A stretch of 64,000 nucleotides of DNA from positions 4,343-68,342 of the forward strand of contig JAHKAJ010000024.1 in NCBI GenBank assembly GCA_018826075.1, given 5' to 3'. Source of the stretch: Candidatus Omnitrophota bacterium (GTDB lineage: Bacteria > Omnitrophota > Gorgyraeia > Duberdicusellales > 4484-171). The translations under genes were made by a program, and so were the position numbers. Below the pieces are notes generated by a model, which was not told the DNA's origin, made no database searches, and saw only the letters and a program-made list of their open reading frames with translations. This document shows, in pieces, positions 4,635 through 61,355 of the stretch. Positions within the stretch are counted from its first letter, which is position 1, and the number at the start of each line of letters is the position of its first letter.

Positions 4635-4642
4635 AAAAAAAC

Positions 4643-5299: not shown

Positions 5300-5316
5300 T
5301 TTTTAGACTATTAAGT

Positions 5317-5362: not shown

Positions 5363-5455
5363 AGAGCTTTGGGCTTTAAGAAAAACAAAAATACGATTGA
5401 CGCAGCAATAAACTTTAGTATAATAATCTATGTAGATTTATTCCAAAACCAAACC

Positions 5456-6927: not shown

Positions 6928-7796
6928 AATTTCTAGTTTTCCTGGCCTGCCTTTTAATTATTCCTTTTTTGTCCCTTCGATTGCAGACGGACACTGCGCT
7001 GCTTGGTGAGCGTCTGCTTTTTGTCCCCCCGCAAGAGTATCTAAGTAACATCCGGGGAGGTTTTCGCAACCTCTTGGCCGATGTTTATTATATCAAAGGC
7101 GTGCTTGCTGTCACTGATGAGTTTAATAGCCGCCAGGAAAGGATTTCCTGGACCCAACAAGTTTTCAAAGCGGCAGTGCTTCTGGATAAAGATATGCTTC
7201 AGGCCTATTTTTTTGCCGGTTCGGCTATTGTCAACAGCAAAGAAGAACTTAAACAGGGAAACGAATTCTTGATCCTGGGTTTGACCAACAGCCCTTCCTA
7301 TTGGCAGATCCCTTACTGGATCGGATTTAATTATTACCTTATCGGCGACAGCCTTAAAGCCGCCGAGTTTTACCGGTTGGCTTCCCAGCGGCCGGGAGCG
7401 CCTAATTTTTTAAAAAGCAACCAGGCGATGCTGTTTTATAAGGCCGGTGAACCGCGAATGGGCTTGATGTACTTGGAAGGTTTGCTGGAGTCAGTAAGCG
7501 ATCCTGAGCAGCTCAAATGGGTAAAGCTTAAAATCGAATGGCTTAAGAACATGATTGTTTTGCAGGATGCAGTCGAGTCGTTTAAGGATCGTTACAACCG
7601 CCTGCCGCAGGATTTGGAAGAACTAATCAGCCGACGGCTGATCTCAAGCGTCCCCAAAGACCCTTTTGGCGGCGGCTATTACCTGGATGATCAATCGGGA
7701 AAAATCAAAAGTTCTTTTGGGATGCCGACTAAGGTCAAAACCACTCCGGAAAAGCCGGCTGAATCCGGAGAAGGCTGTTCTAAATGCAAAAAATAA
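6885..7796 (+). CDS. Hypothetical membrane-anchored protein with TPR-like helical region, part of the pilus/ABC cluster
   Basis: N-terminal TM (ILKFLVFLACLLIIPFLSL) followed by an alpha-helical region. Overlaps the permease 3' end and the next pilin gene start. Confidence 0.4.
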   Translation: MVNKLAHFSEKGILKFLVFLACLLIIPFLSLRLQTDTALLGERLLFVPPQEYLSNIRGGFRNLLADVYYIKGVLAVTDEFNSRQERISWTQQVFKAAVLLDKDMLQAYFFAGSAIVNSKEELKQGNEFLILGLTNSPSYWQIPYWIGFNYYLIGDSLKAAEFYRLASQRPGAPNFLKSNQAMLFYKAGEPRMGLMYLEGLLESVSDPEQLKWVKLKIEWLKNMIVLQDAVESFKDRYNRLPQDLEELISRRLISSVPKDPFGGGYYLDDQSGKIKSSFGMPTKVKTTPEKPAESGEGCSKCKK

Positions 7797-8305
7797 TCAC
7801 CAATCGGCAAAAATCGGGGTTTACTCTAGTTGAATTTATCATGGTCATTGCGATCATCTCCATGATCTCAGTGACTATCGGAGTTTCCCCTTCCACACTT
7901 ACGCCCCGCAAGCTTGAAAACGAAGTCCAGAAAATAGTCGGTGATTTAAACTGGGCCCGGGCTATGGCCATTTCCACTGGCTATCATTACCGGATAGATT
8001 TTGACATCAACAACGATACAGTGGTCAGTAGCACCGACAATAATACCTATATAATCTATAAAGTCGATCCCGCAGATTTAGTCAACGGAACACCGGTCAA
8101 ACGCGGGGTGTTGAGGGTAGATGGTATCAATCTGACTCATTCTTCGCCAGCCGTACCGATATATTTATTTGAATTTATCAGCCCGCAAGGCGGTCTTAAC
8201 AGTACGGTTCTTGACCCTTTGACTATTCATCTGGAGCTAAGCGGCGCGGCAAGTAACATAACTGTCCGCAACTTAACCGGTTATATAAGCTGGGATCGTT
8301 TATGA
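7784..8305 (+). CDS. Minor pilin / pseudopilin (GspH/FimT-like), 173 aa
   Basis: MQKIITNRQKSG|FTLVEFIMVIAIISMISV prepilin signal. The size and position are typical of a GspH-type pseudopilin. Confidence 0.7.
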   Translation: MQKIITNRQKSGFTLVEFIMVIAIISMISVTIGVSPSTLTPRKLENEVQKIVGDLNWARAMAISTGYHYRIDFDINNDTVVSSTDNNTYIIYKVDPADLVNGTPVKRGVLRVDGINLTHSSPAVPIYLFEFISPQGGLNSTVLDPLTIHLELSGAASNITVRNLTGYISWDRL

Positions 8306-9684
8306 AAAAAAAGCTGGCTAAAGCTTTCAGCCTTATTGAAGTTGCCGTGAGCATAACGGTTTTGGGCCTGGTCATTGTCGCAATTGTGCCGGCCATAAAC
8401 AGTGCTTTGCGCCGGGCCCGAATCTCAAACTACAAAGCCGTAGCTCACCGCCTAGCTCAGGAAAGGATTGAGCAGCTGACCGGGACTAATTTCAACAGTG
8501 ATTTTTATGACGGGTTATTCAATCTTACTACCGGCAATCCTTGGAACGATACCGTCTTTCATTTGTTAGGAAACAATACCTTTCCCGGAAACGAGGCTTA
8601 CGGAAACCTTTCGCTTAATACCAGCGACCCTGATGATCCTTTTAGTCATTACAGCCGGTTGACCGAAGGTTCCTGGGATCTTGACCAGGATAGGACTTTA
8701 GATAACGAGAAGTTGGCTGGACGGCCTTTAACGGGGATGTATGGTAATTTAAGCCTGGTCCGGGTAAGCGTATCTTGGGATTTTAATGAAGATGGAGTCG
8801 ATGATTATGAACCGGTGGTAGTAACAACTTTTAAGGCCGGCAGCCTTGAATCTACATGTTCAGCCATGAACCTGGTCAATACTCCTTTTTTAGATAATTC
8901 CACTGACCTTTGCTCTGAACCGGATAAAACTCTGCCAGCCAGTTTTGACGGTACTCTTAACAGCCGGATAACGCCTTACACTGCTGGTACTTTGACTATT
9001 AATGCCAATGTAGGCTGGGCTAATTGTCCTTCTTATTTTATCCTAGCTAATTCGGTAGTTTTAGATGGTTCACCCACGGTTTATGCTGAAGGTAAGACCA
9101 ACTCTACTCTTGATGGCGGTTCGGGTGGTTCTGGCGGCGGCGGTGGTGGTGGCTTTTGTGGGTTTGGTTTTCGTCTTGGAGGCAATGGCGGTAGTGGTGG
9201 TAACGGAATAGGTGCTTGCGGGGCAGGCGGAACTGGCTGTGGCAATAGTTATAATTCAGGTTTTACTTATGGTACGGGTGGTAGTGGTGGCAATGCCGTA
9301 CTGCCTGGCGGAGTCGGTGGCGCTGGCGGTAATGGTTTCGGTGGTGGTGGCGGCGGCGGGACTGTAGCTCCCGGGTTACCTTATGGCCAGGGTGGTGGTG
9401 GAGGTGGAGGCTTAATAGTGATCGTGACTTCTTCCCTTAGTGGCGGCGGCACTTTGAATGCCGCTGGTGGTAATGCTACAGGTTTGTCCTTTCCCGGAGG
9501 GGGCGGAGGAGGAGTGATTTGGATTGCTGCTGAGTCTTACGACGGTAGTATTAGTGCCGACGTTAACCGAGGCACCAACGACTTTCCAGTTCCTATTTTT
9601 AACGCCACATCCGGTATAGCCAGGATTTTTCAACTGAATACTGATGGTTCTCTTACCGCTAGGAATTTCACTGATACCTGGTAA
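8302..9684 (+). CDS. Large minor pilin-like protein with glycine-rich low-complexity central region
   Basis: MKKKLAKA|FSLIEVAVSITVLGLVIVAIVP prepilin-type N-terminus. About 140 aa (roughly 9115-9540) are dominated by GGSGG/GGNGG/GGGGGG tracts. It has ~11 N-x-S/T sequons. Confidence 0.6.
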   Translation: MKKKLAKAFSLIEVAVSITVLGLVIVAIVPAINSALRRARISNYKAVAHRLAQERIEQLTGTNFNSDFYDGLFNLTTGNPWNDTVFHLLGNNTFPGNEAYGNLSLNTSDPDDPFSHYSRLTEGSWDLDQDRTLDNEKLAGRPLTGMYGNLSLVRVSVSWDFNEDGVDDYEPVVVTTFKAGSLESTCSAMNLVNTPFLDNSTDLCSEPDKTLPASFDGTLNSRITPYTAGTLTINANVGWANCPSYFILANSVVLDGSPTVYAEGKTNSTLDGGSGGSGGGGGGGFCGFGFRLGGNGGSGGNGIGACGAGGTGCGNSYNSGFTYGTGGSGGNAVLPGGVGGAGGNGFGGGGGGGTVAPGLPYGQGGGGGGGLIVIVTSSLSGGGTLNAAGGNATGLSFPGGGGGGVIWIAAESYDGSISADVNRGTNDFPVPIFNATSGIARIFQLNTDGSLTARNFTDTW

Positions 9685-19885: not shown

Positions 19886-20762
19886 AGCGATTAAAAAGTT
19901 TATTAGTTTAGCGTTAGCCGAGGATTCAGCCAGCCGGGATGTCACTACTGGTTTGTTGATTTCTGAAGGTATCCGGGCTAGAGCTAAGATTATTGCTAAA
20001 GAACCCGGAGTTCTTTGTGGGTTGGATATTGCTAAAACGGTTTTTAAACAGTTAGATAAAAGAGTCGTTTTCCGAGTTTTAAAAAAAGAGGGGGCGGTTT
20101 TAACAAGGTTTGAGGAGGTGGCTTTGATTCGGGGGCCGGCCAGAGCTATTTTACAGGCCGAGAGAATAGCTTTAAATTTCTTATCGTTTTTGTCGGCTAC
20201 CGCTACTCTTACTGCTAAATTCATCGAACAGGTAAAAGGTATCGATGTAAAAATCATGGATACCCGAAAAACCATACCCAATTTACGCTGTTTTCAGAAA
20301 TATGCAGTTTCAGTCGGCGGCGGAATAAACCACCGCAGTTCCTTATCGGAAGCGGTCTTGATCAAGGACAATCATCTCAAAGCCGGCTGTTTCTTTAATA
20401 AAAAAAGGCTTGATTCCAAAAAGTTAGCTGCCTTATTCGGCAGTTCAGCGGTCAGAACCTTAGCTAAGGCTGAAGTCGAAGTTGAGAATTTAGACGAATT
20501 TAAACAGGTGATTAAGCTTAACCCTGGGATAATTATGCTGGATAATTTTTCTCTGGTTTCTTTGAAAAAAGCAGTCCGGCTGCGTAATGAATACTGTTTA
20601 AGAACGCCGAGTTTAAAACAACGTATCCTTCTGGAAGCTTCCGGGGGGATAGCTCTAAAAAATATAAGGGCAGTTGCCCTTACCGGCGTTGACCGCATAT
20701 CAATCGGGTTAATAACTCACTCTCCGAAAGCCATTGATTTTTCTTTAGAGATAAGAAGATGA
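19872..20762 (+). CDS. nadC: Nicotinate-nucleotide pyrophosphorylase (quinolinate phosphoribosyltransferase)
   Basis: The QPRTase fold motifs DTRKT…AVSVGGG and NHR…LIKDNH are conserved. Overlaps valS by 14 nt. Confidence 0.8.
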   Translation: MHINKAIKKFISLALAEDSASRDVTTGLLISEGIRARAKIIAKEPGVLCGLDIAKTVFKQLDKRVVFRVLKKEGAVLTRFEEVALIRGPARAILQAERIALNFLSFLSATATLTAKFIEQVKGIDVKIMDTRKTIPNLRCFQKYAVSVGGGINHRSSLSEAVLIKDNHLKAGCFFNKKRLDSKKLAALFGSSAVRTLAKAEVEVENLDEFKQVIKLNPGIIMLDNFSLVSLKKAVRLRNEYCLRTPSLKQRILLEASGGIALKNIRAVALTGVDRISIGLITHSPKAIDFSLEIRR

Positions 20763-20773
20763 TTCGTGTTTAT

Positions 20774-20802
20774 GTAGGGGCGACCCGCCGGGTCGCCCCT
20801 AC
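20774..20802 (+). repeat. REP-like palindrome copy 1 (GTAGGGGCGACCCG-C-CGGGTCGCCCCTAC)
   Basis: A perfect 14-bp inverted repeat with 1-nt centre. Near-identical copies lie at 29250-29280 and 41822-41850, all in same-strand intergenic gaps. Confidence 0.7.
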
Positions 20803-20826
20803 GGTGATTATCAACAAACAAGAGAT

Positions 20827-22797
20827 ATGAATTTTAGGTTGGTTAGCAAATTCAAACCAACCGGAGACCAGCCCCGGGCGATCAAAGCTATTGTTCAGCG
20901 CCTTAAGGAACAAAAGCCTTACACCACGCTTTTGGGGGTAACTGGTTCAGGTAAAACCTTTACTTTGGCCGCGGCAATCGAAAAGCTTGACCGGCCGGTC
21001 TTAGTTATTTCGCATAATAAGACTTTAGCCAGCCAGCTTTACGCCGAGTTCAGGGATTTTTTTCCGCAAAATTCGGTAGAATATTTTGTCAGTTATTACG
21101 ACTATTATCAGCCGGAAAGCTACATTCCTCAAACCGATACTTATATTGAGAAAGATGCTTCGATTAATGAACGCCTTGACCGCTTGAGGCTTTCGGCTAC
21201 CAGTTCCCTGGTCAGCCGCCGGGATGTATTAGTGGTGGCCTCGGTTTCCTGTATTTATAACCTCGGTTCGCCTGAGGATTACCAGAAGCTGACCTTAAAC
21301 CTTTCAGCCGGCCGGCCGCTTAAAACTGAAGAAGTCATCGCCGGTTTAGTCAGCCTGCAATATGAACGTAATGATTACGATTTTAAACCGGGAACTTTCC
21401 GTCTGAAGGGAGACAATCTAGATATTTTTCCTGCTTATCGCCAGCTGCCGTTGCGGTTTGAATTTTTTACTGACTGCCTTGAAAAGATCTATGAGTTTGA
21501 ATCATTGAGCGGTAAGAAAATTGCAAAGCTCGATAAAGTCAGCATCTATCCGGCAAAACATTTTATTATCGAAAAGGAACGGATCGAGTCAGCTTCCCAG
21601 GTGATAACCCGGGAGCTAAATCAGCACCTCGATTTTTTAAAAACCGAAGGTAAACTGCTTGAAGCCCAGCGTCTTAGGCAGCGTACCCTTTTTGATTTGG
21701 AGATGCTTAAAGAATGCGGATACTGTCATGGGATCGAAAACTATTCACGGCATTTATCCGGCCGTCCGTCCGGATCGCGGCCGTTTTGCCTGATCGATTA
21801 TTTTCCCGAAGATTTTATTACCCTGATTGATGAAAGCCACGTTACTGTACCTCAACTGCGCGGGATGTATGAAGGTGACCGTTCACGTAAACAGACTTTA
21901 GTCGATTATGGTTTTCGTCTGCCGTCTTGCTTGGATAACCGGCCTTTGCGGTTTGATGAGTTCCGGAAATTGACTAAACAGACGGTTTATGTTTCGGCAA
22001 CCCCGGCTGAGTTTGAAACCAACCTTTGCGGCGGCCAGATCGTGGAGCAGATAATCAGGCCGACTGGTTTGCCGGATCCGCAAATCCAGGTCCGGCCGAG
22101 TGAAAACCAGATCAGTGATTTGATCCAGGAGATCAAAAAACGGACTAAGAATAAAGAACGGACTTTAGTCACTACCTTGACTAAGCGGATGGCCGAAGAC
22201 CTGGCTGGATATTTATTTGAGGCCGGCCTGAAGGCTTCCTATATTCATTCAGAAATCGACACTTTGAAGCGTTCGCAGATCCTTAAAGACCTGCGTTTGA
22301 AAAAAATCGACATTTTAGTGGGAATAAATCTGTTACGTGAAGGTTTGGATTTACCCGAGGTATCCTTGGTAGCGATTCTTGATGCCGATAAAGAAGGGTT
22401 TTTGCGTTCAGCCAGCTCGTTGATTCAGGTGGCTGGCCGTTGTGCCCGCAATATAAACGGAAAAGTCATCATGTATGCCGATACCATTACTAAATCGATG
22501 CAGAAAGCGATCTCTGAAAGTAACCGGCGGCGCAAAACCCAGATTAGCTATAATGCCCGTCATAAAATCACACCGCGCAGTATCGTGAAGGCGATCGGCG
22601 AAGGTATCGAGGTCCATTTAAAAGAGGACTCTAAACTAAGCCGTTTTTTAGACATTTCCCCGGAGGAAAACGAACTTCTCGATATTATCAGCCAACTCCA
22701 GAAAGAGATGGATTTGGCGGCCAAGAGCTTGCATTTTGAGAAAGCCGCCGAACTCCGCGACAAAATAGCGGATTTACACAAAGCCTTGAAAAAGTGA
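20827..22797 (+). CDS. uvrB: Excinuclease ABC subunit B
   Basis: Walker A GVTGSGKTFT, helicase motifs, and a C-terminal UVR domain (…FEKAAELRDKIADL). Confidence 0.95.
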   Translation: MNFRLVSKFKPTGDQPRAIKAIVQRLKEQKPYTTLLGVTGSGKTFTLAAAIEKLDRPVLVISHNKTLASQLYAEFRDFFPQNSVEYFVSYYDYYQPESYIPQTDTYIEKDASINERLDRLRLSATSSLVSRRDVLVVASVSCIYNLGSPEDYQKLTLNLSAGRPLKTEEVIAGLVSLQYERNDYDFKPGTFRLKGDNLDIFPAYRQLPLRFEFFTDCLEKIYEFESLSGKKIAKLDKVSIYPAKHFIIEKERIESASQVITRELNQHLDFLKTEGKLLEAQRLRQRTLFDLEMLKECGYCHGIENYSRHLSGRPSGSRPFCLIDYFPEDFITLIDESHVTVPQLRGMYEGDRSRKQTLVDYGFRLPSCLDNRPLRFDEFRKLTKQTVYVSATPAEFETNLCGGQIVEQIIRPTGLPDPQIQVRPSENQISDLIQEIKKRTKNKERTLVTTLTKRMAEDLAGYLFEAGLKASYIHSEIDTLKRSQILKDLRLKKIDILVGINLLREGLDLPEVSLVAILDADKEGFLRSASSLIQVAGRCARNINGKVIMYADTITKSMQKAISESNRRRKTQISYNARHKITPRSIVKAIGEGIEVHLKEDSKLSRFLDISPEENELLDIISQLQKEMDLAAKSLHFEKAAELRDKIADLHKALKK

Positions 22798-25600: not shown

Positions 25601-25640
25601 ATTTTTAATTAAGGGACACATCCTTAAAGGGTGTGTCCCT
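25601..25640 (+). terminator. Rho-independent terminator after groEL
   Basis: AAGGGACACATCC-TTAAA-GGGTGTGTCCCTT stem-loop followed by TTTATTTTTT. Confidence 0.7.
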
Positions 25641-25708
25641 TTTATTTTTTATGGATTTTTGTTTCAAACAGTGCTATAATAAATAAAAGTTTTTATACTT
25701 TGATTTTT

Positions 25709-27058
25709 ATGAATGAAACGCCTTTTTATCTGACTACTCTCGGTGCCGATAACCTGGAATTAGGTTTATTTCGCTATTCGCTTTTGCCCGAGGAAGGGTT
25801 TATCGCTTCTAATACTTCTTTATTTCGTCTGCTCGGCTATACCAACAAGGGGAATTTTCTCCAGAAAAAGTTAGCTGAACTCTTTTTTAACCCCCAGGAT
25901 AGCGATATTTTTTTTGAGCTCCTGCGTCGGAACCAAAAGGTCAAATTTTTCGAAGTTGCTTTTAAGAAAAAAGACGCTTCGCCGATCTGGATAGCCATCA
26001 CCGCTTCGCTTATTTTTTCCAGCGACCAGCGCCAGTGTTTAGAAGGGGTGGTCCAGGATATTTCTTATCAAAAACAGATGCAGAATAAGCTTTTAATGGA
26101 GAAAGATTTCTTGCAGGCCCTTTTTGACAATATCCCTGACGCGGTTTATTTTAAGGACCGTAACAACCGGATAATCAAAGTCAATAAATTTTACGTTAAA
26201 GGTACCGGCCTTGACGAAAAAAATATCGTCGGAAAGACTGATTTCCATTTTTTCCCTTACCAGCAAGCCAAAGAGATGTTTGAAGATGATAATCATGTTC
26301 TAAACACTGGAAAACCGATAGTCGGCAAGATCGAAAAAACCCAGTTGCCTGACGGCAGCTGGAACCAGGTCATTACTACTAAAATCCCGATGCATGATCG
26401 TGACGGAAAAATTATCGGCTCGATCGGTACTACCCGGGACATGACTGCCCATGCTAACCTGGAAGAAAAACGCCTGTTTATGGCCATAAATGCTTTAGAG
26501 GTTTTGGGTAAGGCCCTTGAGATGCGCGATCCTTACACTTTCAGCCATACCCGCCATGTAGCTAAAATCGCCGCAACCATTGCTAAAGCTTTAGGTTGGG
26601 ATGAAAACCGCCTTCTGGCTATGCAGTTAGCCGGCGAGCTTCATGATTTGGGAAAAATCAGTATCCCCTTGGATATTCTAAACAAGCCTGGAGATCTAAG
26701 TAATTTAGAATATGGTTTGATCAAGGAACATACTACTAATTGTTACAATTTGATCAAAGATATTGAATTTCCTTTTCCTCTGGCCGAAATCATCTACCAG
26801 CATCATGAGCGGCTTGACGGTTCTGGTTATCCTCGTAAGCTTTCCGGAAAAAAGATCCTGCCTGAAGCCCGCATCCTGGCGGTTAGCGATGTTTTAGAGG
26901 CCATGACTCATCACCGGCCATACCGGGCAGCTTTAGGCTTAAAAGCTGCCTGTAATGAGTTATCAACTAACAAAGGCACTAAGTACGATCCGGTTATTGT
27001 AGAGGTGCTGTTGAGCTTAGTCAAAAACAGCGGCGACAAAGAGTTTTGGCTAAACTAA
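25709..27058 (+). CDS. PAS domain - HD-GYP domain protein (probable c-di-GMP phosphodiesterase); start moved to MNETPFYL
   Basis: HD motif (HTRHVAKIA…HDLGK), HHERLDGSGYP (the GYP motif), and an upstream PAS-like region (LQALFDNIPDAVYFKDRNNRII). Confidence 0.8.
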   Translation: MNETPFYLTTLGADNLELGLFRYSLLPEEGFIASNTSLFRLLGYTNKGNFLQKKLAELFFNPQDSDIFFELLRRNQKVKFFEVAFKKKDASPIWIAITASLIFSSDQRQCLEGVVQDISYQKQMQNKLLMEKDFLQALFDNIPDAVYFKDRNNRIIKVNKFYVKGTGLDEKNIVGKTDFHFFPYQQAKEMFEDDNHVLNTGKPIVGKIEKTQLPDGSWNQVITTKIPMHDRDGKIIGSIGTTRDMTAHANLEEKRLFMAINALEVLGKALEMRDPYTFSHTRHVAKIAATIAKALGWDENRLLAMQLAGELHDLGKISIPLDILNKPGDLSNLEYGLIKEHTTNCYNLIKDIEFPFPLAEIIYQHHERLDGSGYPRKLSGKKILPEARILAVSDVLEAMTHHRPYRAALGLKAACNELSTNKGTKYDPVIVEVLLSLVKNSGDKEFWLN

Positions 27059-27216
27059 TTCGGGACACATCCCATTTAAATAGGTTATGGTTTTATTGCG
27101 TCATTTATACTCGATTAGCTTTTTGTGTTTTTTATTTATCGGTATTTGGGGTTTTTAAAATAGTCCTAATTGGTTAAACAAAACATGCAGTTTTTAAATG
27201 GGATGTGTCCCGAATT
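27057..27216 (+). repeat. 160-bp element bounded by perfect 24-bp terminal inverted repeats (AATTCGGGACACATCCCATTTAAA … TTTAAATGGGATGTGTCCCGAATT); MITE-like or long regulatory palindrome upstream of por operon
   Basis: The left arm 27057-27080 and right arm 27193-27216 are exact reverse complements. The 112-bp interior is AT-rich. The GGGACACATCC core is shared with the groEL terminator. Confidence 0.6.
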
Positions 27217-27257
27217 AGTTCTTGCTATTCTTTTATTTTGTGATATAACCAAACCTT

Positions 27258-27794
27258 ATGAAAGAAGCCAAAATTTTTGCTCGAGCCGGGCAGGGGGCGA
27301 TTACTACTGCAGCGATCCTCGGTGAAGCCCTGTTTTATGAAAATAAATACGCTTATGCTTTTCCGCATTTCGGAGCCGCGCGTATGGGGGCGCCGATGAA
27401 TGCTTTTTTACGCTTTGATTCCAAACCGATTCGTTTACGTTCTCAAGTATATAACCCAGACTATGTTATAGTGGTAGATCCGACTTTAATCAAAAGCCAA
27501 AATTGTTTCACCAATTTAAAAACCGGCGCAAAAGCGGTGGTGGCGGTGCGTGAAGCAACAGTTATTCCTAAAGTTGCCGGCGTCGATATCTATTCCTTAG
27601 AGGCAGAAAAAATTGCCATGGAGCTTATCGGCCGGCCGTTTGCTAATACTGTGTTGATTGGAGCTTTCGCCAAAATGAGCGGCGAGTTAAGCCTGGATTC
27701 AATATTTAAAGCGGTAACCAATGCCTTTGCTGAAAAGCCGGAGGTTTTGGAGAAGAACCTGGCGGCAGTAAAAAAGGGGTACGAAAGTGTTTAG
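27258..27794 (+). CDS. porC: Pyruvate/2-oxoacid:ferredoxin oxidoreductase gamma subunit
   Basis: 178-aa Pyr_Fd_oxred gamma-like sequence. It is first in the gamma-delta-alpha-beta gene order. Confidence 0.75.
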   Translation: MKEAKIFARAGQGAITTAAILGEALFYENKYAYAFPHFGAARMGAPMNAFLRFDSKPIRLRSQVYNPDYVIVVDPTLIKSQNCFTNLKTGAKAVVAVREATVIPKVAGVDIYSLEAEKIAMELIGRPFANTVLIGAFAKMSGELSLDSIFKAVTNAFAEKPEVLEKNLAAVKKGYESV

Positions 27795-28041
27795 TGTTTT
27801 AGCCAGTCGCGCGAAGACTTCTAAAGCAAATTTGACCGGTTCCTGGCGTTCAACCCAGAAACCGAAGTTTTTAAAAAAAGATTGTATTAATTGCGGATTA
27901 TGTAAATTCGTCTGTCCGGAAGGTTGCATTGAGGGTATCGAGAAGAATGCTTACGATACCGACCTTGACTATTGCAAAGGTTGCGGTCTTTGCGCCTACA
28001 TTTGTCCGAAGAAAGATATTGAGATGGTCTCTAATGATTAA
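27787..28041 (+). CDS. porD: Pyruvate:ferredoxin oxidoreductase delta subunit (2x[4Fe-4S] ferredoxin)
   Basis: Two CxxCxxCxxxCP motifs (CINCGLCKFVCP and CKGCGLCAYICP). Confidence 0.8.
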   Translation: MFSVLASRAKTSKANLTGSWRSTQKPKFLKKDCINCGLCKFVCPEGCIEGIEKNAYDTDLDYCKGCGLCAYICPKKDIEMVSND

Positions 28042-28066
28042 ATTTCGATCAGGAGGATTAATCTAA

Positions 28067-29242
28067 GTGAAACAGTTTCTTGAAGGTTCCTGGGCGGTGG
28101 CGCAAGCGACTAAACTTTGCCGTCCCGGCGTAGTAGCAGCTTATCCGATAACACCCCAGACTCATATTGTTGAGCATCTGGCCCAATTTATCGCCGACGG
28201 CGACCTGAAAGCGCAAACTCTGAATGTGGAAAGTGAACATTCGGCGGCTTCAGTAGTCCTGGGTTCACAGGCTGCCGGAGTCAGGAGTTTTACCTGTACT
28301 AGCTCTCAAGGCCTTCTTTTGATGGGTGAAGTTGTTTTTTGTATAGCCGGTATGCGGCTTCCGGTGATGATGGTCTGTGCTAACCGGGCGATTTCAGCAC
28401 CGATTAATATTTGGAATGATCAGCAGGATTCAATATCTTTACGGGATGCCGGTTGGATACAGTTTTATGCCGAAAACAATCAGGAAGCAGTAGACCTGAT
28501 CATTGCCGGCTACAAAATCGGCGAAAATCCTAAGATCATGCTTCCGATAATGGTCTGTATGGATGGTTTTATTTTGACTCATGGTATGGAAGTCGTAGAT
28601 GTCCCGGATCAGGCCGAGGTCGATAAATTTCTTCCCAGCTACAAACCGCCCTATAAACTAGATGTAAACGACCCGATGAGCTTCGGCCTTTTAGGTGATC
28701 CTACGGTTTATACGGAAACGCGTTTTGCGATCCAGGATACTTTTAAAGATTTGCTTAAGCTCATACCGGATGTCGGGGCCGAATACAGTAAAGTTTTTGG
28801 CCGCCAGAGCATAAGATTAGTTGAGGAATATCTTATGGAGGATGCTGATACCGTTTTGGTGGCTATGGGGTCGGTTTGCGGGACAATAAAAGATGTAATT
28901 GATCTTGAACGCCAGAAAGGCAAAAAGGTCGGCCTGCTTAAAGTAGTGACTTACCGTCCGTTTCCTAAAGAAGCGATAAAAAAATCTTTAGCTAAAGTTA
29001 AATCTATCGGCGTGTTGGATAAAGATATTTCTTTGGGTTCTGACGGAGCTTTGTTTACTGAAGTCAAGGCAATCACTCCTGAGGATAAAAAAATCAGCGG
29101 CTTTATCGCTGGTTTAGGCGGCCGGGATATTCGGCCGGAATCTATTGAAAAGATGATTGTTACAACTGAAAAAGGTTCGGGATCTTCTGAATTTATCGAC
29201 TTAAATAAAGATTTGCTGTGGAACGAATTCCGGGTGATATAG
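28067..29242 (+). CDS. porA: Pyruvate:ferredoxin oxidoreductase alpha subunit
   Basis: 391-aa PFOR domain I/II-like sequence (AYPITPQT…, GMRLPVMMV). Confidence 0.8.
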   Translation: MKQFLEGSWAVAQATKLCRPGVVAAYPITPQTHIVEHLAQFIADGDLKAQTLNVESEHSAASVVLGSQAAGVRSFTCTSSQGLLLMGEVVFCIAGMRLPVMMVCANRAISAPINIWNDQQDSISLRDAGWIQFYAENNQEAVDLIIAGYKIGENPKIMLPIMVCMDGFILTHGMEVVDVPDQAEVDKFLPSYKPPYKLDVNDPMSFGLLGDPTVYTETRFAIQDTFKDLLKLIPDVGAEYSKVFGRQSIRLVEEYLMEDADTVLVAMGSVCGTIKDVIDLERQKGKKVGLLKVVTYRPFPKEAIKKSLAKVKSIGVLDKDISLGSDGALFTEVKAITPEDKKISGFIAGLGGRDIRPESIEKMIVTTEKGSGSSEFIDLNKDLLWNEFRVI

Positions 29243-29249
29243 GCATATA

Positions 29250-29280
29250 TGTAGGGGCGACCCGACGGGTCGCCCCTACA
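29250..29280 (+). repeat. REP-like palindrome copy 2 (TGTAGGGGCGACCCG-A-CGGGTCGCCCCTACA), located inside the por operon between porA and porB
   Basis: Same palindrome as at 20774 and 41822. Only the central nucleotide differs. Confidence 0.7.
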
Positions 29281-29300
29281 GAACGAGGTAAAAGATAGAT

Positions 29301-30185
29301 ATGGAACGAAAACATTTTACTGAAAATCTTTATGTGTCCGGGCATACAGCCTGTTCAGGCTGCGGCCAGTCAATGGCTGTACGGATAGTGATGAATACTG
29401 CCGGAAAAAATACCATGGTGGCTAATTCAACTGGTTGTCTTGAGGTTTTTTCGACTAAAGCGCCGGAAACTGCTTTTGGTGTACCTTGGATTCATTCGCT
29501 GTTTGAGAATTCAGCGGCAGTAGCCAGCGGCATAGAAGCGGCTTTAAAGCATCTAGGCACCCTTGATAAAATAAAAGTGATCTCTCAGGCCGGCGACGGT
29601 GGAACCGGAGACATCGGTTTGCAGGCAATATCCGGGATGCTTGAGCGCGGCCATGATATTTTATTTGTTTGTTACGATAATGAAGCCTATATGAATACCG
29701 GTATCCAGCGCAGCGGCTTGACCCCGTTTTATGCTAATACTACTACTTCACCGGTAGGTAAAAATTCTTTCGGTAACCCTCAAGTCAAAAAACCGGTGGT
29801 TGAGATCTGTGCCGCACACCATATTCCTTATTCAGCTACAGCTTCTGTAGGAAACCCTAAGGATATTGAGCGGAAAGTTAAAAAAGCCTTGTCGATCCGC
29901 GGCCCGAAATATCTACAGATCCATGTGCCTTGTCCTTTAGGTTGGAAATCTGAACCTTCTCAGACTATTGAGATCGCCCGCCTAGCAGTGGCTTGCGGTT
30001 TATATCCTTTGGTCGAATACGAATACGGAAAACTGGTAAGGGTTAATAAGTTGCCGGCGGCTAAACCAGTTGCTGATTACTTAAAGCTTCAAGGCCGCTT
30101 TCGCCATTTATTGAAGAAACCCGAAGAGCTAAAACGGGTTCAGGAAGTCGCTGACAAAAATATTGAATATTACGGATTGAAGTAG
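29301..30185 (+). CDS. porB: Pyruvate:ferredoxin oxidoreductase beta subunit (TPP-binding)
   Basis: A Cys-rich N-terminus (CSGCGQS) and a TPP-binding GDG…N region (AGDGGTGDIG). Confidence 0.8.
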   Translation: MERKHFTENLYVSGHTACSGCGQSMAVRIVMNTAGKNTMVANSTGCLEVFSTKAPETAFGVPWIHSLFENSAAVASGIEAALKHLGTLDKIKVISQAGDGGTGDIGLQAISGMLERGHDILFVCYDNEAYMNTGIQRSGLTPFYANTTTSPVGKNSFGNPQVKKPVVEICAAHHIPYSATASVGNPKDIERKVKKALSIRGPKYLQIHVPCPLGWKSEPSQTIEIARLAVACGLYPLVEYEYGKLVRVNKLPAAKPVADYLKLQGRFRHLLKKPEELKRVQEVADKNIEYYGLK

Positions 30186-40403: not shown

Positions 40404-41807
40404 ATGATTTATACAAAAGAGGTAGAATTGCTCAATAACAAAGGTTTGAAAACCGTAGATGGACGAGTTAAAGTTATTGATGAGAAAGAATTTCGTGCTC
40501 ATATTATCGATAATCTTTTAGACACTATTGTGTTGGGCGTTGATCCGCATTTACGAAGATTGTCTTACTGGGTAGCTTACAGTGCCGGAGTCCAACTGGG
40601 AGTCGTTCCGGCTTCGATTCAGGAACTTTATACAGCTATGGGGCAGGGTAAAGTAAAAGGATTTACGGTTCCGGCGATGAATATCCGTACGCTTACTTTT
40701 GACCTGGCCAGGGCGGTTTTTCGGTCAGCTAAAAAAATCAATGCCGGAGCATTTATTTTTGAGATCGCCAAGAGCGAAATCGGCTATACTGACCAGCGTC
40801 CTTTGGAATATAGCTCGGTGATCACTTTGGCAGCGCTTAAAGAAGGCTATCACGGCCCGATTTTTATCCAGGGTGACCATTTTCAACTTAAGGCGGCAAA
40901 CTATCTAAAAGACCGTGAAAAAGAAATTTCTCAGTTAGAGGTTTTGCTCAAAGAGGCGATCTCGGCACATTTTTACAATATCGATATTGATTCTTCGACT
41001 TTAGTTGATTTATCTAAAGATAACCTTAACGAACAGCAAAGAAACAATTACGAAGTCTGTGTTGAGATCAGCCGGTATATACGCAAACTCCAGCCGGCTG
41101 GAATCAATATTTCTATCGGTGGCGAGATCGGCGAGGTGGGCGGTAAGAATTCAACCCCTGAGGAATTAGATGCTTTTATGCAAGGGTATCTAAATTCTCT
41201 GGGTTCACAAGCTGGTATTTCTAAAATCAGTATCCAGACCGGTACCAGCCATGGCGGGGTGGTCCTGCCTGACGGTTCAATCGCAAAGGTCAGTATTGAT
41301 TTTGATACTTTGGCCAAGCTTTCGGAAATTGCCAGGAAAAAATACGGTTTAGCCGGCGCTGTCCAGCATGGAGCTTCAACTTTGCCTAACGAAGCCTTTC
41401 ACCGTTTTTCAGAAGTCGGCTGTGCTGAAATTCACCTGGCCACCCAATTTCAAAATATGGTTTATGATTATTTGCCGTTGCCGCTTAAAGAAGAGATCTA
41501 TGCTTGGCTGCATACTAATTGTGCCGGTGAAAAAAAGCCTGATTGGACCGATGACCAGTTTATTTATAAAACTCGTAAAACTGCCCTTGGGCCGTTTAAA
41601 AAGAAGATCCACTCGCTTTCCCGGGAGCTAAAAGATAAGATATCTTTGGTTTTAGAAGAGGAATTTTCTTTTCTTTTTGAGCAGCTGAAAATAAAAGATA
41701 CTAAAAATTATGTTGACCAGTATATTACTTTGCTTAAAACCGAGAAAGAAAAAAATTATTTTTTGGGCGAAGAAAAAGATTTAGGCGAATTAGAAGGAGC
41801 GGATTGA
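40404..41807 (+). CDS. fba: Class II fructose/ketose-bisphosphate aldolase family protein (unusually long, 467 aa)
   Basis: IFIQGDHFQ (DH zinc ligand), [12 protein letters not shown] and [10 protein letters not shown] resemble class II FBA motifs. Placement directly after pfkA supports the call. Confidence 0.55.
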
Positions 41808-41821: not shown

Positions 41822-41850
41822 GTAGGGGCGACCCGGCGGGTCGCCCCTAC
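41822..41850 (+). repeat. REP-like palindrome copy 3 (GTAGGGGCGACCCG-G-CGGGTCGCCCCTAC)
   Basis: Third copy, between the aldolase gene and ilvD. Confidence 0.7.
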
Positions 41851-41868: not shown

Positions 41869-43539
41869 ATGCGTTCGGACAAAATCAAAAAAGGAATTGA
41901 ACGGATGCCTAACCGGGCATTACTTTATGGTACCGGAGCCCATCCCGATCATTTAAGACGCCCGTTTATCGGTATTGCTTCAAGCTTCAGCGATCTTATT
42001 CCCGGGCATATTAACATGCGCACTCTTGAGCGCTATATTGAGCGGGGAGTTGAAAATGCTGATGGCGCGCCGTTTATCTTCGGTGTTCCCGGGATCTGCG
42101 ACGGAATCGCCATGGGCCACAGCGGGATGAAACAATCACTGCCTTCCCGGGAGCTAATCGCTGACATCATCGAAAGCATGGTTTCTGCTTATTCTTTAGA
42201 TGGATTGATCCTGCTGACCAATTGCGACAAGATTACTCCTGGTATGATCATGGGGGCTTTGCGGGTGAATGTACCGGCGATTGTGGTTACTGCCGGGCCG
42301 ATGCTGGCCGGTCATCTGGGTAAAAAACGACTATCTTTGGTGCGGGATACTTTTGAAGCGGTTGGTCGTTTCCAGGCTGGAGAAATAACTGAAAGTGAGC
42401 AGAAAAATTTGGAAATCGAGGCTTGTCCGTCTTGCGGTTCCTGCCAAGGGCTTTATACTGCAAACACCATGGCTTGTCTAACCGAGGCTATGGGTTTTTC
42501 TTTGCCCTATTGCGCAACTTCACCGGCAGTATTAAATAAAAAAATGCGGATTGCCTATGAAAGCGGGCAAAAAATAGTCGCTTTAGTCAAACAAGGGTTA
42601 AAGCCGCGTGATATTATCAATAAGGATTCGTTGGCGAATGCTATCCGGGTGGATATGGCTTTAGGCGGTTCGACTAACACGGTTTTACACCTGATGGCTA
42701 TTGCTAAGGAAGCTGGAATAAAGCTGGATTTGAAGGAGTTTGACCGGATAAGCCTGGAAACTCCTCATATTTCTAATTTGCGGCCCGGTGGAGAATATTT
42801 TATGGAGGATTTAGACCAGGCTGGGGGGATTCCGGCAGTTTTACATCGCCTGATCAATAAATTAAAACCTAGCCCTACGGTTTGCGGTAAATCAATAAAA
42901 GAAATCGCCAAAAGTGCTTTGGTCAGCGACCAAGACATTATCCGGCCGTTGAACAACCCTTACCATAAGCAGGGAGGGATCGCTATTCTTTTTGGCAATC
43001 TTGCGCCGGAAGGAGCGGTGGTCAAACAGTCTGCGGTTGATCCGCAAATGTTAAGTTTTTGCGGCAAAGCGAATGTTTTTGACTCTGAAGAAGATGCTAT
43101 GACTGCGATTCTCGGTAAGAAAGTTAAAAAGGGGGAAGTAGTGGTTATCCGTTATGAAGGGCCGGCCGGCGGACCAGGTATGCGGGAGATGTTGGCGCCT
43201 ACTTCAGCAATAGTCGGTTTGAACCTTCATAAACAGGTAGCTTTGATCACTGATGGCCGTTTTTCCGGCGGAACCCGCGGGCCTTGTATCGGCCATATTT
43301 CTCCCGAGGCCGCTTCGGGAGGGTTATTAGCTTATTTAAAGAATGGCGATGCCATTACTATTGATATACCTAAGCGAAAAATTGAAGTAAAACTTAGCCA
43401 AGCTGAAATCAAAAACCGTAAAAAAGCAATAAAAATAAGGCCGGCTAAGGCGATTAGCGGATATCTAAGCCGTTATTCAAAATCGGTGAGTTCGGCTTCA
43501 ACCGGGGCGGTTTTGGGAAAGCTATTGACAGAGAAGTGA
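41869..43539 (+). CDS. ilvD: Dihydroxy-acid dehydratase (IlvD/EDD family)
   Basis: [18 protein letters not shown], the Cys ligands (CPSCGSCQG) and the C-terminal SGGTRG are present. No other ilv genes are nearby. Confidence 0.85.
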
Positions 43540-50281: not shown

Positions 50282-50593
50282 ATGCAAACTATCAAATTCC
50301 CTATAGCAGTAATTTTACATAAACACGGCGAGATGGTCTATTTTTCCCAGCTTGACCTGATACATATTCTGGAACGGGCTTTACGCCGCAGCGATTTGCC
50401 GCTTTACTTTACTCAAGGATTCAATCCTCACGTAAAGATAAGTTTTAAGAACGGCTTAAAACTCGGCCAGGAAGGCTTTATTGAAGTTATCTTTTATTTT
50501 ACCGAAAATATAGTTTTTTGCCGGCTTAAGGAAATTCTTCAGCCGCAGTTGCCCGAAGGATTGGAAATAATAGATAAGGAGGTCAGCGGGTAA
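50282..50593 (+). CDS. Radical-SAM-linked DUF2344-like protein (short form)
   Basis: HKHGEMVYFSQLDLIHILERALRRSDLPLYFTQGFNPHVK fits the TIGR03936 core motif. Confidence 0.5.
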   Translation: MQTIKFPIAVILHKHGEMVYFSQLDLIHILERALRRSDLPLYFTQGFNPHVKISFKNGLKLGQEGFIEVIFYFTENIVFCRLKEILQPQLPEGLEIIDKEVSG

Positions 50594-51071
50594 GGAAAGT
50601 GCTTTTTATACTTTCAGCTTTAAAAAATTCCTTAGTGAATTTTTCAGCCAGTTTATGGTCGTATTTTTGGCAGGAAAAAATATTGATATAGGATTTGCGC
50701 CAGTATTCGGAAAAATGTCCGGTAATCGAACTAGTCTCGATAAACTGCAGAAGAGAATAGCCCTTAGTGAAAGGTTTGTCCAGGCCAAAATAGGGCAGCT
50801 GAACTTTACCGAACTTCTTCATTTTAATCAACTTACAAAGCTCATCTACGTATTGGCTTAGCTTTTTTTTCGAACTCATAACCGCCAGGTCACATCCGGA
50901 AAGGTCAAGAATCAACTCATAACCGAATACATTAGTTTTTTTCTTTAATGGATCGAGTTTGGAAGTGGAGGGAAAAGTAGGGTTACCAGATGGTTCGTTT
51001 GCAAGGCGAACCTCTGGGGAATGCGTTAGCTCGTCAGTCACAGAGTATTTTTCTGGTATCATCCCCTTCAA
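50583..51071 (-). CDS. speH: S-adenosylmethionine decarboxylase proenzyme-like (SpeH/class 1a family) with ~45-aa N-terminal extension
   Basis: GYELILDLSGCD, IETSSITGHFSEY (putative Glu-Ser self-cleavage region) and YINIFSCQKYD parallel the SpeH motifs. Confidence 0.55.
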   Translation of the reverse strand: MKGMIPEKYSVTDELTHSPEVRLANEPSGNPTFPSTSKLDPLKKKTNVFGYELILDLSGCDLAVMSSKKKLSQYVDELCKLIKMKKFGKVQLPYFGLDKPFTKGYSLLQFIETSSITGHFSEYWRKSYINIFSCQKYDHKLAEKFTKEFFKAESIKSTFLTR

Positions 51072-51344: not shown

Positions 51345-52592
51345 TTAGCTTAGTAAGTGAACTGATTCAAAAGTTGCCGGCACTTCGGAAATTTTAGTTT
51401 CCAAACCCAGGGTGTCCAGTAGCTTTATGAATGGATCCGGGTCTAGCTCTTCGACATTGGCCATGGTTTTTACGTCCCAGGTCCCTTGAGCTATCAGCAT
51501 TGCCACGGCGACGGGAGGAACTCCGGCAGTATAACAGATAGCCTGTGACTCTAACTCTTTATAACAGGCGGCATGGTTGCAGATATTATAAATAAAAATG
51601 TCTTTATCTTTACCGTCTTTCTCACCGTGGATCAGGTTTCCAATGCAGGTTTTTCCGGAGTATTTGGGTGCCAGAGAAAGAGGGTCAGGTAAAATGGCCT
51701 TCAAAACTTTTAGCGGCACGACTTCAATGCCTTCGGCGGTTTTTACCGGTTTTTCGGAAGTCAGCCCCAGGTTGGTCAGGACTGAAAAAACATTAATATA
51801 GTGGTCGCTAAAACCCATCCAAAAACGGATGCTATTGGCATCGATATTTTTTGACAGGGAATGAAGCTCATCATGGCCGTTTAAATAGATCGGTTGTTTG
51901 CCGACTACCGGAAAATCGTAGATTCTTTTTATCGAATGAACTTTTTCGCAAACCCATTTACGGTCGATCCAGGCCCAAACTTTTTTAAATTCCCGAAAGT
52001 TTATTTCCGGGTCAAAATTAGTAGCAAAATATTTACCGTGGTTTCCGACATTAACATCCATAATGTCAATAGTATCGATTTTATCAAAGTGATGCTTTAC
52101 CGCTAAAGCGCAATAGGCGTTTACTACTCCCGGGTCAAAGCCTGCGCCTAAAATAGCCGTAATCTTGTTTTCTTTGCAACGATCTTTGCGTTTCCATTCA
52201 TAGTTAGCATACCATGGCGGATCTTCACAAACCTTATTTGGTTCTTCATGAATGGCCGTATCAATATAGGCAGCCCCGGTTTGGATACATGCCTCGAGAA
52301 GAGACATATTCACATAAGATTGCGCAAGATTAAGCACTATTTCAGAGTTAGTTTCCTTGATTAGTTTTATTGTAGCCGGGATATCTAAGGCGTCTATCTG
52401 ACGTGAATATAACTTTTGATTGTTCATTTTTATGTGTTTTTTTCTTTTAACACTTTCAATGATCAGGTCACATTTTTTTTGGGTCCTTGAAGCAAGGCAA
52501 ATATCACCTAGAAGATCATTGTTTTGAGCGCATTTGTGTGCGGCTACATGGGCAACGCCTCCGGCCCCGACAATTAGTATGTTTTTTCTCAT
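51345..52592 (-). CDS. Carboxynorspermidine/carboxyspermidine dehydrogenase (saccharopine dehydrogenase family)
   Basis: Rossmann motif ILIVGAGGVAHVAAHK in a 415-aa protein immediately downstream of the nspC-like gene. Confidence 0.75.
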   Translation of the reverse strand: MRKNILIVGAGGVAHVAAHKCAQNNDLLGDICLASRTQKKCDLIIESVKRKKHIKMNNQKLYSRQIDALDIPATIKLIKETNSEIVLNLAQSYVNMSLLEACIQTGAAYIDTAIHEEPNKVCEDPPWYANYEWKRKDRCKENKITAILGAGFDPGVVNAYCALAVKHHFDKIDTIDIMDVNVGNHGKYFATNFDPEINFREFKKVWAWIDRKWVCEKVHSIKRIYDFPVVGKQPIYLNGHDELHSLSKNIDANSIRFWMGFSDHYINVFSVLTNLGLTSEKPVKTAEGIEVVPLKVLKAILPDPLSLAPKYSGKTCIGNLIHGEKDGKDKDIFIYNICNHAACYKELESQAICYTAGVPPVAVAMLIAQGTWDVKTMANVEELDPDPFIKLLDTLGLETKISEVPATFESVHLLS

Positions 52593-61352: not shown

Positions 61353-61355
61353 AAA

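Follow-up and report, generated by a model that had tools for sequence, protein, structure and literature searches.

The gap between a gene for an HD-GYP protein and the por operon in an Omnitrophota MAG is filled by a long palindrome, and the core of this palindrome recurs in the terminator of the groEL gene 1.4 kb away. We examined this locus within the 64-kb stretch of DNA that was analysed as a whole (the window). The question is whether the palindrome serves its neighbours, whether it is a scar left by the insertion of the HD-GYP gene, or whether it is a mobile element in its own right.

The palindrome and its neighbours

The features of the locus are the following.

25611 to 25641, forward strand: intrinsic terminator of groEL, AAGGGACACATCC-TTAAA-GGGTGTGTCCCTT, then a T-run
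25709 to 27058, forward strand: gene for a PAS-PAS-HD-GYP protein of 449 aa (Pfam HD_5 at 2e-42, PAS_9 and PAS)
27053 to 27080, forward strand: left arm of the palindrome, a type A TIR/REP unit, AACTAATTC-GGGACACATCCC-ATTTAAA (arm-profile E-value 7.5e-08)
27081 to 27192, no strand: spacer, AT-rich, unique and with no function detected by fold, Rfam, promoter, similarity and tblastn analyses, all of them null
27193 to 27220, reverse strand: right arm, identical to the left arm in reverse complement (arm-profile E-value 3.3e-07)
27222 to 27249, forward strand: predicted por promoter, -35 TTGCTA at 27222-27227 and extended -10 TGATATAAC (TGnTATAAC) at 27241-27249

A preliminary description of this DNA had reported perfect arms of 24 bp around 112 bp. 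These are exact (AATTCGGGACACATCCCATTTAAA at 27057-27080 and its reverse complement at 27193-27216), and the perfect repeat in fact reaches 28 bp (AACTAATTCGGGACACATCCCATTTAAA, 27053-27080 and 27193-27220). Pairing between the arms continues imperfectly to 41 nt with 85% complementarity, and the whole doublet measures 168 bp from arm end to arm end. The end of the HD-GYP gene, with its last sense codon (AAC) and its TAA stop codon (27056-27058), lies within the left arm, while the right arm ends 1 nt short of the por -35 element. With up to three mismatches allowed, the 24-mer occurs in the 64 kb at the two arms only, versus an expectation of 0. The self-pairing of a type A arm is limited to 4 bp (GGGA/TCCC), and the arm contains no GTAG. 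The 112-bp spacer has no significant similarity to any of the 129 loci that we collected or to the spacer of a second doublet in the window (see below).

It had been suggested that the por promoter might lie in the enclosed AT-rich DNA. No promoter-like site was detected at 27081-27192, and the -35/-10 block that we assign to por adjoins the right arm on the outside and is conserved in three relatives (L013, L014 and L016), all of which are without the doublet. This promoter is putative, consensus and conservation being the grounds for it; as the porG ATG is at 27258, it would give rise to a near-leaderless por mRNA.

Full-length orthologues of the HD-GYP protein number in the hundreds in Omnitrophota, at 60-90% identity. 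In five relatives (L013, L014, L016, L121 and L122; 64-90% HD-GYP identity) the gene also lies between groEL and por/PFOR. Since the order groES-groEL-HD-GYP-por/PFOR is kept in these five with or without the repeats, and the motif is absent on either side of the gene in three of them, the palindrome is not the footprint of an HD-GYP insertion, as had been suggested; the HD-GYP gene is a resident, conserved gene outside the mobile element. The idea of a conserved regulatory stem-loop fares no better: in the closest relative (L013, 90% HD-GYP identity) HD-GYP and porG are only 64 bp apart, without a palindrome. Its empty site is not clean, with a different stretch of 26 nt at the position, so that it does not mark the boundaries of an insertion. 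The assemblies of the source species all carry the doublet, and no presence/absence polymorphism was seen among them; being more than 99.9% identical, they are uninformative on this point.

The arm family in other genomes and its transposase

In a scan of about 186,000 species genomes, the 19-mer GGGACACATCCCATTTAAA was found in 23 stretches in the genomes of other species, the source species not being among the genomes matched; by our estimate, a random 19-mer would give about 4. Thirteen of the stretches are inverted pairs whose spacers (0-96 nt) are unrelated in sequence: these spacers measure 0, 1, 7, 9, 14, 14, 21, 34, 54, 54, 56 and 96 nt, and one pair overlaps by 1 nt. Four MAGs have two exact 19-mer loci each. 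The exact 24-mer arm is present at five loci (L019, L021, L036, L038 and L039), and the arms match repeats of distant genomes over 24-26 nt. The 19-mer had no match in viral contigs. The hosts belong to Omnitrophota or are MAGs that carry the label Atribacterota or another one, and such labels are unreliable: an apparently archaeal occurrence (L025), on a contig labelled 'Methanosarcinales', was rejected as a binning error since the GltX and Dxs encoded there are of the bacterial type. The preliminary description had named, as evidence against its reading, an arm unique in the genome together with an interval conserved in relatives without the palindrome; the interval is indeed so conserved, but the arm does recur in other genomes.

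At two loci (L020 and L022) the arms lie 740-870 nt apart around an ORF of 194-204 aa that encodes a small Y1/HUH tyrosine transposase of IS200/RAYT-like type (Pfam Y1_Tnp, 1e-17 to 1e-19). Against the NCBIfam model for REP-associated tyrosine transposases these ORFs score 84.4 and 77.8 bits (cut-off 80), and the best match of a transposase homologue among solved structures is TnpA-REP of E. coli (4ER8). The arms sit about 55-60 nt upstream of the transposase start and just after its stop. More arm-flanked transposase genes occur at L123, L124 and L129, and the genes seen between such arms all encode Y1_Tnp, never a DDE enzyme. Among the 68 metagenomic transposase homologues for which both flanks were available, 46 carry GGGACA no more than 200 nt before the gene and TGTCCC no more than 200 nt after it, versus 1 of 1339 control placements. 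The core of the arm, GGGACACAT, is conserved even around transposases that are only about 50% identical. Tblastn found no transposase gene or remnant in the 64-kb window, the 112-bp spacer included, and the three closest NCBI homologues that we looked up (P0126, P0129 and P0131) are from assemblies other than the source. The association of arm and transposase is established in related genomes, and in the source itself the family is known from three repeat sites in one 64-kb window.

The palindrome is likely a gene-less, non-autonomous TIR/REP doublet of this tyrosine-transposase-linked repeat family. It would have come to lie between the stop codon of HD-GYP and the promoter of por in the lineage of the window, after the split from the relative with 90% identity, through a transposase supplied in trans that acts on single-stranded DNA while the two arms are paired, along the lines of the mechanisms proposed for IS200/IS605 elements and REPINs. 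Because spacers are unrelated between doublets, they give no sign that an existing doublet gave rise to this one as a single unit; single arms may instead have inserted twice, independently, or a transposase-bearing unit may have decayed in situ. We consider the doublet at this site to be essentially selfish or neutral.

The groEL terminator and a second doublet

The core that the palindrome was said to have in common with the groEL terminator is present at both sites: the 11-mer GGGACACATCC, with at most one mismatch, occurs four times in the 64 kb versus 0.44 expected, and all four occurrences are in the groEL terminator and the palindrome arms. In a terminator scan the groEL hairpin has 14 pairs, a loop of 3 and a T-rich tail. 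It combines the GC-rich stem, the short loop and the directly adjoining U-run of an intrinsic terminator, and its T.G wobble pairs form only in the transcript of the forward strand. The arm profile matches the two halves of this hairpin weakly (E-values 0.032 and 3.4). At the orthologous groEL site L013 has TTTCGGGACACATCCCAAATAGGGTGTGTCCCGA, and L016 has GGGACACAGCACATTTAAA-TT-TTTAAATGGGATGTGTCCC with the exact 19-mer in its right arm; L014 and L122 have a CCCCGT...ACGGGG hairpin, which we take as ancestral. The best explanation for the groEL terminator is that a tight pair of the repeat that forms the palindrome, older and since trimmed, now acts as a canonical intrinsic terminator. Since the exact 24-mer recurs at five loci in other genomes and the groEL hairpin shares only 11 nt, the likeness between the two sites, as judged from their sequences, points to a common repeat family, neither site being a local copy of the other.

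The arm profile identifies three sites of the repeat family in the window, all of them dimers. The third is a doublet of a variant type.

61356 to 61370, forward strand: left arm of the type B doublet, TGGGGACAGGTCCCG (arm-profile E-value 0.015)
61505 to 61519, reverse strand: right arm of this doublet, CGGGACCTGTCCCCA

Its left arm begins 4 nt past the TAA stop of the ORF at 60915-61352, and 12 nt separate the end of its right arm from the stop of a convergent ORF at 61531-63621 on the reverse strand. The type B arms are paired in the predicted fold of the RNA at 61335-61540 (z -4.3), and the 134-bp spacer between them is unrelated to the 112-nt spacer of the palindrome (z 0.8 and 0.1). The type B variant also flanks the transposase gene in L020. 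A cluster of palindromes at 51238-51341 (AACTTACTCTGGACA) is weakly similar and was dropped, having no match to the arm profile. The window also contains three copies of an unrelated family of GTAG palindromes.

Alternative explanations

An alternative explanation is that a functional RNA or DNA structure has been selected at this site, serving as a terminator or insulator between HD-GYP and por, or as a stem that stabilises mRNA or is a substrate of RNase III, with the repeats as raw material. The arms begin right at the stop codon and leave a single nucleotide before the por -35, a placement that fits this explanation, as do the strong fold (the RNA at 27040-27260 is predicted to form one long hairpin of -62.1 kcal/mol, z = -5.6), the groEL copy as a textbook intrinsic terminator, and the type B doublet, which similarly takes up the space between the stop codons of two convergent ORFs. 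REP elements of E. coli stabilise upstream mRNA and, when near a stop codon, can affect translation, which we also count in its favour. However, no hairpin was found between HD-GYP and por/PFOR in the five relatives compared, so that no such function is conserved. Rfam matches to the long hairpin, at gathering and permissive thresholds, were spurious miRNA-precursor matches only. The 112-nt interior is unstructured when folded alone (z = +0.45). Nor does the structure have the form of an intrinsic terminator, as its loop is 112 nt long and no U-run follows immediately (CUUGCUAUUC comes after the stem, and the sequence 3' of the 168-bp structure is CTTGCTATTC). Selection for a structure at this site is unlikely. 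Independently of such selection, a transcript reading through from HD-GYP would carry a perfect RNA stem of 28 bp from the stop codon on, which could, as a side effect, stop 3' exonucleases, serve as an RNase III substrate or impede ribosomes at the termination codon.

A local event without transposition is very unlikely: here the groEL hairpin would have been duplicated and 112 bp then gained in its loop, or the arms would have been acquired separately around an ancestral spacer. The core in common with the groEL terminator 1.4 kb away agrees with it, and without the intervening 112 bp the inner arm ends would join perfectly, as the palindrome ...CCCATTTAAATGGG.... The ends of the interior also bear a faint likeness to the spacers of relatives, with GGTTAT after the stop in L014 and L016 and AAAACxGCAGTT in L013; however, these resemblances are short and did not emerge as blocks of an alignment, and the interior as a whole has no significant match among the 129 loci. 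In addition, the arms match those of distant genomes over 24-26 nt but their own groEL hairpin over only 11 nt.

The preliminary description had called the element MITE-like. Of the four readings that it offered, the miniature inverted-repeat transposable element is the one supported, though with a mechanism other than the term implies: the doublet is MITE-like without a target-site duplication, and the family is linked to a Y1/HUH enzyme. A classical MITE, that is, an insertion sequence with a DDE transposase that has been deleted internally and moves by cut-and-paste with target-site duplication, would agree with the perfect terminal inverted repeats, the small size, the AT-rich interior and the intergenic position. 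However, the sequences outside the arms (TTTTGGCTA ending in GGCTA on the left, CTTGCTATT beginning with CTTGC on the right) have no direct repeat in common, and Y1/HUH is the sole type of protein found between such arms. The TTTAAAT repeat at the inner arm ends, which we considered as a target-site duplication, was rejected as the palindromic arm end present in all members of the family. This makes a classical MITE highly improbable.

Finally, an invertible switch, in which a site-specific recombinase would flip the segment to control por, can hardly be entertained, since, although 28-bp inverted repeats that enclose about 110 bp immediately 5' of an operon are its typical geometry, all eleven assemblies of the species (NCBI, ENA, Logan) have the segment in one orientation, the two contigs produced by a break inside the interior in SRR27458547 overlap by 24 nt in that same orientation, the conserved por promoter lies outside a segment that has no promoter-like site within it, and no recombinase gene is nearby.

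Implications

On the likely reading, the doublet belongs to an ordinary, previously uncatalogued family of miniature mobile DNA, and is neither a regulatory device nor an insertion scar. The palindrome thereby gains a name and an origin, and three readings of it are removed (por regulator, invertible switch and gene-insertion scar); the practical consequence at the HD-GYP/por locus is small. RAYT/TIRYT-linked repeats are extended to Omnitrophota and neighbouring uncultivated lineages, for which our searches of the searchable literature returned no relevant description, either of the motif or of REP elements in Omnitrophica. The arm consensus, ATA/ATTC-GGGACACAT[C/A]CC-ATTT, can be used by annotators for masking, and a simple substrate of the TIR type would suit tests of RAYT-like DNA recognition if the transposase can be purified.

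A wider reading is that the repeat family and its transposase spread among uncultivated anaerobic phyla and repeatedly replaced native intrinsic terminators, which would make the repeat a 'portable terminator' that moves horizontally. One hint in this direction is that the repeat took the place of the groEL terminator in the lineage of the window and L013 and, apparently independently, in L016; another is the A-run and T-run flanks of many short doublets elsewhere, which resemble bidirectional terminators. The phyla in question would be Omnitrophota, Atribacterota and possibly Nitrospirota and Desulfobacterota, with 19-24 nt identical. However, identity of the arms need not mean recent transfer, because the core is conserved around transposases of about 50% identity. 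We offer this reading tentatively and think it rather doubtful; if true, a portable terminator would differ from the REPIN-RAYT systems known to date, which are lineage-specific and passed on vertically.

Comparison with known systems

Correia (NEMIS) elements of Neisseria and similar MITEs are about 100-160 bp long, have terminal inverted repeats of about 26 bp and lie adjacent to genes. They are transcribed into long hairpins that can be processed by RNase III, and some supply or abut promoters or terminators. In contrast to the doublet, Correia elements have a TA target duplication, a conserved interior and no known link to a Y1 transposase, so that the analogy is functional only.

The REPIN-RAYT systems of P. 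fluorescens and the BIMEs of E. coli (Bertels and Rainey 2011, PMC3116915) share with our family the inverted doublet of short repeats with a spacer and a long predicted hairpin, the extragenic location, the lack of target duplication, and a repeat that also borders a single tyrosine transposase gene, whose product is presumed to move the doublets in trans. The arms described here, however, lack the 5' GTAG (or GTGG) tag and a real hairpin of their own, and the abundance that we see is modest. Whereas REPIN families have a characteristic spacing, our spacers range from 0 to more than 100 nt and are unrelated; the conservation of the core arm across such divergent transposases is a further difference.

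The arrangement of arms and transposase matches a published class, the TIRYT genes or TIRtrons (Di Nocera et al. 2013, PMC3733652; subclass discussed in Quentin et al. 2018, PMC6006769). Two differences are evident: neither the ..ATA/ATTC-GGGACACATCCC-ATTTAAA family nor its hosts were found in the searchable literature, and Pfam finds no C-terminal HTH domain in our transposases, whereas Quentin et al. report one for most TIRYTs (PMC6006769). The cited literature holds no demonstration of transposition by a TIRYT. In both systems, in our case in the relatives of the source, a RAYT-like Y1/HUH gene lies between plain inverted repeats rather than GTAG hairpins, and the distance from the upstream TIR to the gene is roughly constant. 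TIRs of TIRYT genes also occur away from the gene, single, dimeric or grouped, in moderate numbers (PMC3733652). They have GGGGWSAS in common, at a similar distance from the gene (PMC3733652), and this motif is matched at eight of eight positions by the type B arm (GGGGACAG, 61357-61364) and at seven of eight by the type A arm (CGGGACAC, 27061-27068); the arms at L045, L049 and L053 carry GGGGACAC at the motif.

Palindrome between the HD-GYP gene and the por operon

All of the sequence features named in the preliminary description were found in the window. The perfect inverted repeat that it placed behind the HD-GYP gene exists, with arms of 28 bp rather than 24 bp. The features discussed here are:

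20774-20802, 29251-29279 and 41822-41850, copies of a GTAG palindrome
25611-25641, groEL terminator, a canonical stem and T-run, with the 11-mer GGGACACATCC in common with the arm
25709-27058, PAS-PAS-HD-GYP gene, 449 aa
27053-27080, left arm AACTAATTCGGGACACATCCCATTTAAA, with its exact complement at 27193-27220
27222-27260, conserved block with the predicted por promoter, directly outside the right arm
61356-61370, left arm of the second (type B) doublet, TGGGGACAGGTCCCG, a perfect 15-bp arm
61505-61519, right arm of the type B doublet, the complement of TGGGGACAGGTCCCG

The 28-bp arms enclose a spacer of 112 bp, and their complementarity extends, more weakly, out to 41 nt; the number of chance matches expected in the window for a 24-mer arm is 0. 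The left arm spans the TAA stop (27056-27058) of the HD-GYP gene together with the sense codon before it. The AACTAA at the end of this gene is also native in the relative L121 (GATAACTAA), so that 3-6 nt at the outer edge of the repeat may belong to the host. The predicted RNA fold of the palindrome is strong (z -5.6), a signal owed wholly to the arms, since the 112-bp interior alone gives z +0.45. A search of the palindrome against Rfam matched no family. In a read-through transcript from HD-GYP, a 28-bp perfect stem starting from the stop codon could affect mRNA decay or ribosomes at the termination codon; the long loop and the missing U-run argue against efficient intrinsic termination.

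Distribution of the arm and its link to a transposase

The arm was found elsewhere. We scanned one genome per species (~186,000 genomes) with GGGACACATCCCATTTAAA and found it in 23 stretches, none from the source species, against about 4 expected for a random 19-mer by our own arithmetic estimate. Inverted pairs with the GGGACA ends facing outward make up 13 of the 23; their spacers (0-96 nt; the two arms of one pair overlap by 1 nt) are unrelated in sequence. The arm flanks are of two sorts, ...ATA-GGGACA or ...ATTC-GGGACA, mirrored on the opposite side. The full 24-mer of the window is present at five loci in other genomes, and four MAGs carry two loci each. The genomes with the repeat are labelled Omnitrophota, 'Planctomycetia', Atribacteria, Sulfobium, Syntrophaceae and others, and the phylum label of a MAG contig is reliable only as far as the binning; at least one 'Planctomycetia'-labelled MAG appears to be an Omnitrophota relative. 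An archaeal occurrence was rejected: the contig concerned (JAIWAR010000017.1, labelled Methanosarcinales archaeon) encodes a bacterial-type glutamate-tRNA ligase GltX (TIGR00464, 452 bits) and Dxs, and it probably comes from a bacterium and was binned wrongly with the archaeal MAG. A tight repeat doublet in a further Omnitrophota MAG (L018, 1663-1701) lies directly 3' of a tRNA gene (...GGTTCGAATCC...CCA) and may act as its terminator.

In two of the repeat-bearing stretches, L020 and L022, a single ORF of 194-204 aa with HUH (HVHLLL) and YIxxNP motifs lies between arms spaced 740-870 nt apart. This ORF matches Pfam Y1_Tnp (1e-17 to 1e-19); among NCBIfam models, 'REP-associated tyrosine transposase' scores highest (84.4 and 77.8 bits, cut-off 80). 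For a 227-aa homologue, the best solved relative is TnpA-REP of E. coli (4ER8). The L020 transposase is flanked by the type B arm, and the L022 transposase, 75% identical to it, by the type A arm, the variant found behind HD-GYP.

We also compared 80 metagenomic homologues of the transposase with their flanks (33-51% identity). An upstream arm of the type ATAGGGACACAT(A/C)CCATTTTT recurs at about 55-60 nt 5' of the ATG, with a -35-like hexamer, CTTGACA, directly after it; a complementary arm lies just 3' of the stop. GGGACA upstream and TGTCCC downstream occur within 200 nt at 46 of the 68 loci for which both flanks are present, versus 1 of 1339 control placements drawn in the same DNA. Three more homologues (73-76% identity) have the same flanking-arm pattern. 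In more distant ones the arm takes forms like GGGGACACAATACTTAATT or GGGACAGTATAC and so diverges together with the enzyme.

Searched with a profile built from 68 arms, the window has three sites: the doublet behind HD-GYP, the groEL hairpin (weak matches) and the type B doublet, which has a 134-bp spacer and fills the space where two ORFs converge, from one stop codon to the other. The two long doublets have spacers of unrelated sequence. The profile has no match in a dense hairpin cluster at 51218-51341, between ORFs 50583..51071(-) and 51345..52592(-); among the hairpins of this cluster are an imperfect palindrome of 29 nt (CGAATTAACTCTGGACATTTAC.../...GTAAATGTCCAGAGTAAGTTCG) and GGACAAACAACTTACG...CGTAAGTTGTGTCC.

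A second repeat family in the window, unrelated to the arm, is a canonical GTAG...CTAC REP, the palindrome GTAGGGGCGACCCGNCGGGTCGCCCCTAC, which is perfect over its 29 nt. Its copies lie in three co-directional gene spacers (nadC-uvrB, porA-porB and 40404..41807 / 41869..43539), and its half-sites have six matches versus 0.79 expected. The nadC-uvrB copy is missing when window 20753-20839 is compared with GCA_018829265.1 and GCA_043812175.1 (1087-1131 of their loci), which are otherwise 99.97% identical and differ from the window in this spacer and the first uvrB codons. Either a presence/absence polymorphism or a short tract of recombination accounts for this difference.

Gene neighbourhood in relatives

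The HD-GYP gene lies downstream of uvrB, coaX, groES and groEL and upstream of porG-porD-porA-porB; its protein has hundreds of full-length orthologues (60-90% identity). In L013, the closest relative, HD-GYP and porG are just 64 bp apart, with no palindrome between them. A block TTGCTA-N16-TGnTATAAC-N8-ATG is common to the window, L013 and L014, and L016 keeps its promoter hexamers. The missing palindrome in L013 and the conservation of this block outside the arm indicate that the element is a lineage-specific addition of ~160 bp between the stop codon and a pre-existing promoter; the idea that the palindrome contains the por promoter is thereby abandoned. The L013 spacer is no clean empty site from which the insertion boundaries could be fixed. 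Exact protein matches assign the window to an Omnitrophota MAG population, whose assemblies (GCA_018829265.1, GCA_043812175.1 and others; >99.9% identity) all carry the element in a single orientation. Since relatives lack a hairpin between HD-GYP and por, a selected role at this locus is not evident.

The predicted por -10 and the porG ATG are separated by just 8 nt (27241-27260), with the same geometry in L013 and L014, and no Shine-Dalgarno precedes this ATG in the window, which suggests a leaderless or near-leaderless por mRNA. L014, L016 and L122 have a single-chain PFOR of ~1200 aa after HD-GYP (5443-9033, 5465-9058 and 4427-7365+, respectively) in place of the four-subunit por (porGDAB, 27258-30185 in the window); the enzyme type has been swapped in situ behind one conserved promoter in some close relatives.

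At the groEL terminator, L014 and L122 have a different hairpin (AATCCCCGT...ACGGGGATT), likely the ancestral one. The window and L013 have a GGGACACATCC hairpin with an identical T.G wobble (0.44 chance matches to this 11-mer are expected in the window), and a nearly complete tight doublet is present in L016, a relative that groups with L014. This distribution suggests two or more replacements of the native terminator by the repeat, a hint of either a target preference for hairpins or selection for terminator function.

That the palindrome is a footprint of HD-GYP insertion is contradicted by the groES-groEL-HD-GYP-por order, retained in five relatives (HD-GYP identity 90% in L013, 84% in L014 and L016, 68% in L121 and 66% in L122), which makes HD-GYP a long-standing resident.

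Comparison with known systems

The description that fits the feature best is a TIR/REP doublet that lacks a gene and belongs to a RAYT/TIRYT-type tyrosine transposase family, to which it is linked in related genomes. By analogy with the established mechanism of IS200/IS605 and the one proposed for REPINs, the doublet would be mobilised in trans on single-stranded DNA with its arms paired. The earlier MITE-like label captured a real resemblance; the doublet does not fit a classical MITE, as a target duplication around the doublet was looked for and is absent, and it has no DDE parent. Like REPINs (PMC3116915), the element is an inverted doublet tied to a RAYT-type gene; unlike them, its arm units do not each carry a GTAG-tagged hairpin, and the doublets have neither characteristic spacing nor related spacers.

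RAYT-like genes flanked by plain terminal inverted repeats instead of GTAG REPs were described by Di Nocera et al. (PMC3733652), who introduced the terms TIRYT for the gene and TIRtron for the unit; the same description is given by Quentin et al. (PMC6006769). These TIRs have GGGGWSAS in common and are spaced similarly from the gene; some genomes contain families of them, of moderate abundance, as single, dimeric or grouped repeats (PMC3733652). The arm family fits this description, with GGGGACAG in the second doublet, GGGGACAC in relatives and CGGGACAC in the arm behind HD-GYP. Its sequence is new and its hosts have been little studied, but the kind of element is known.
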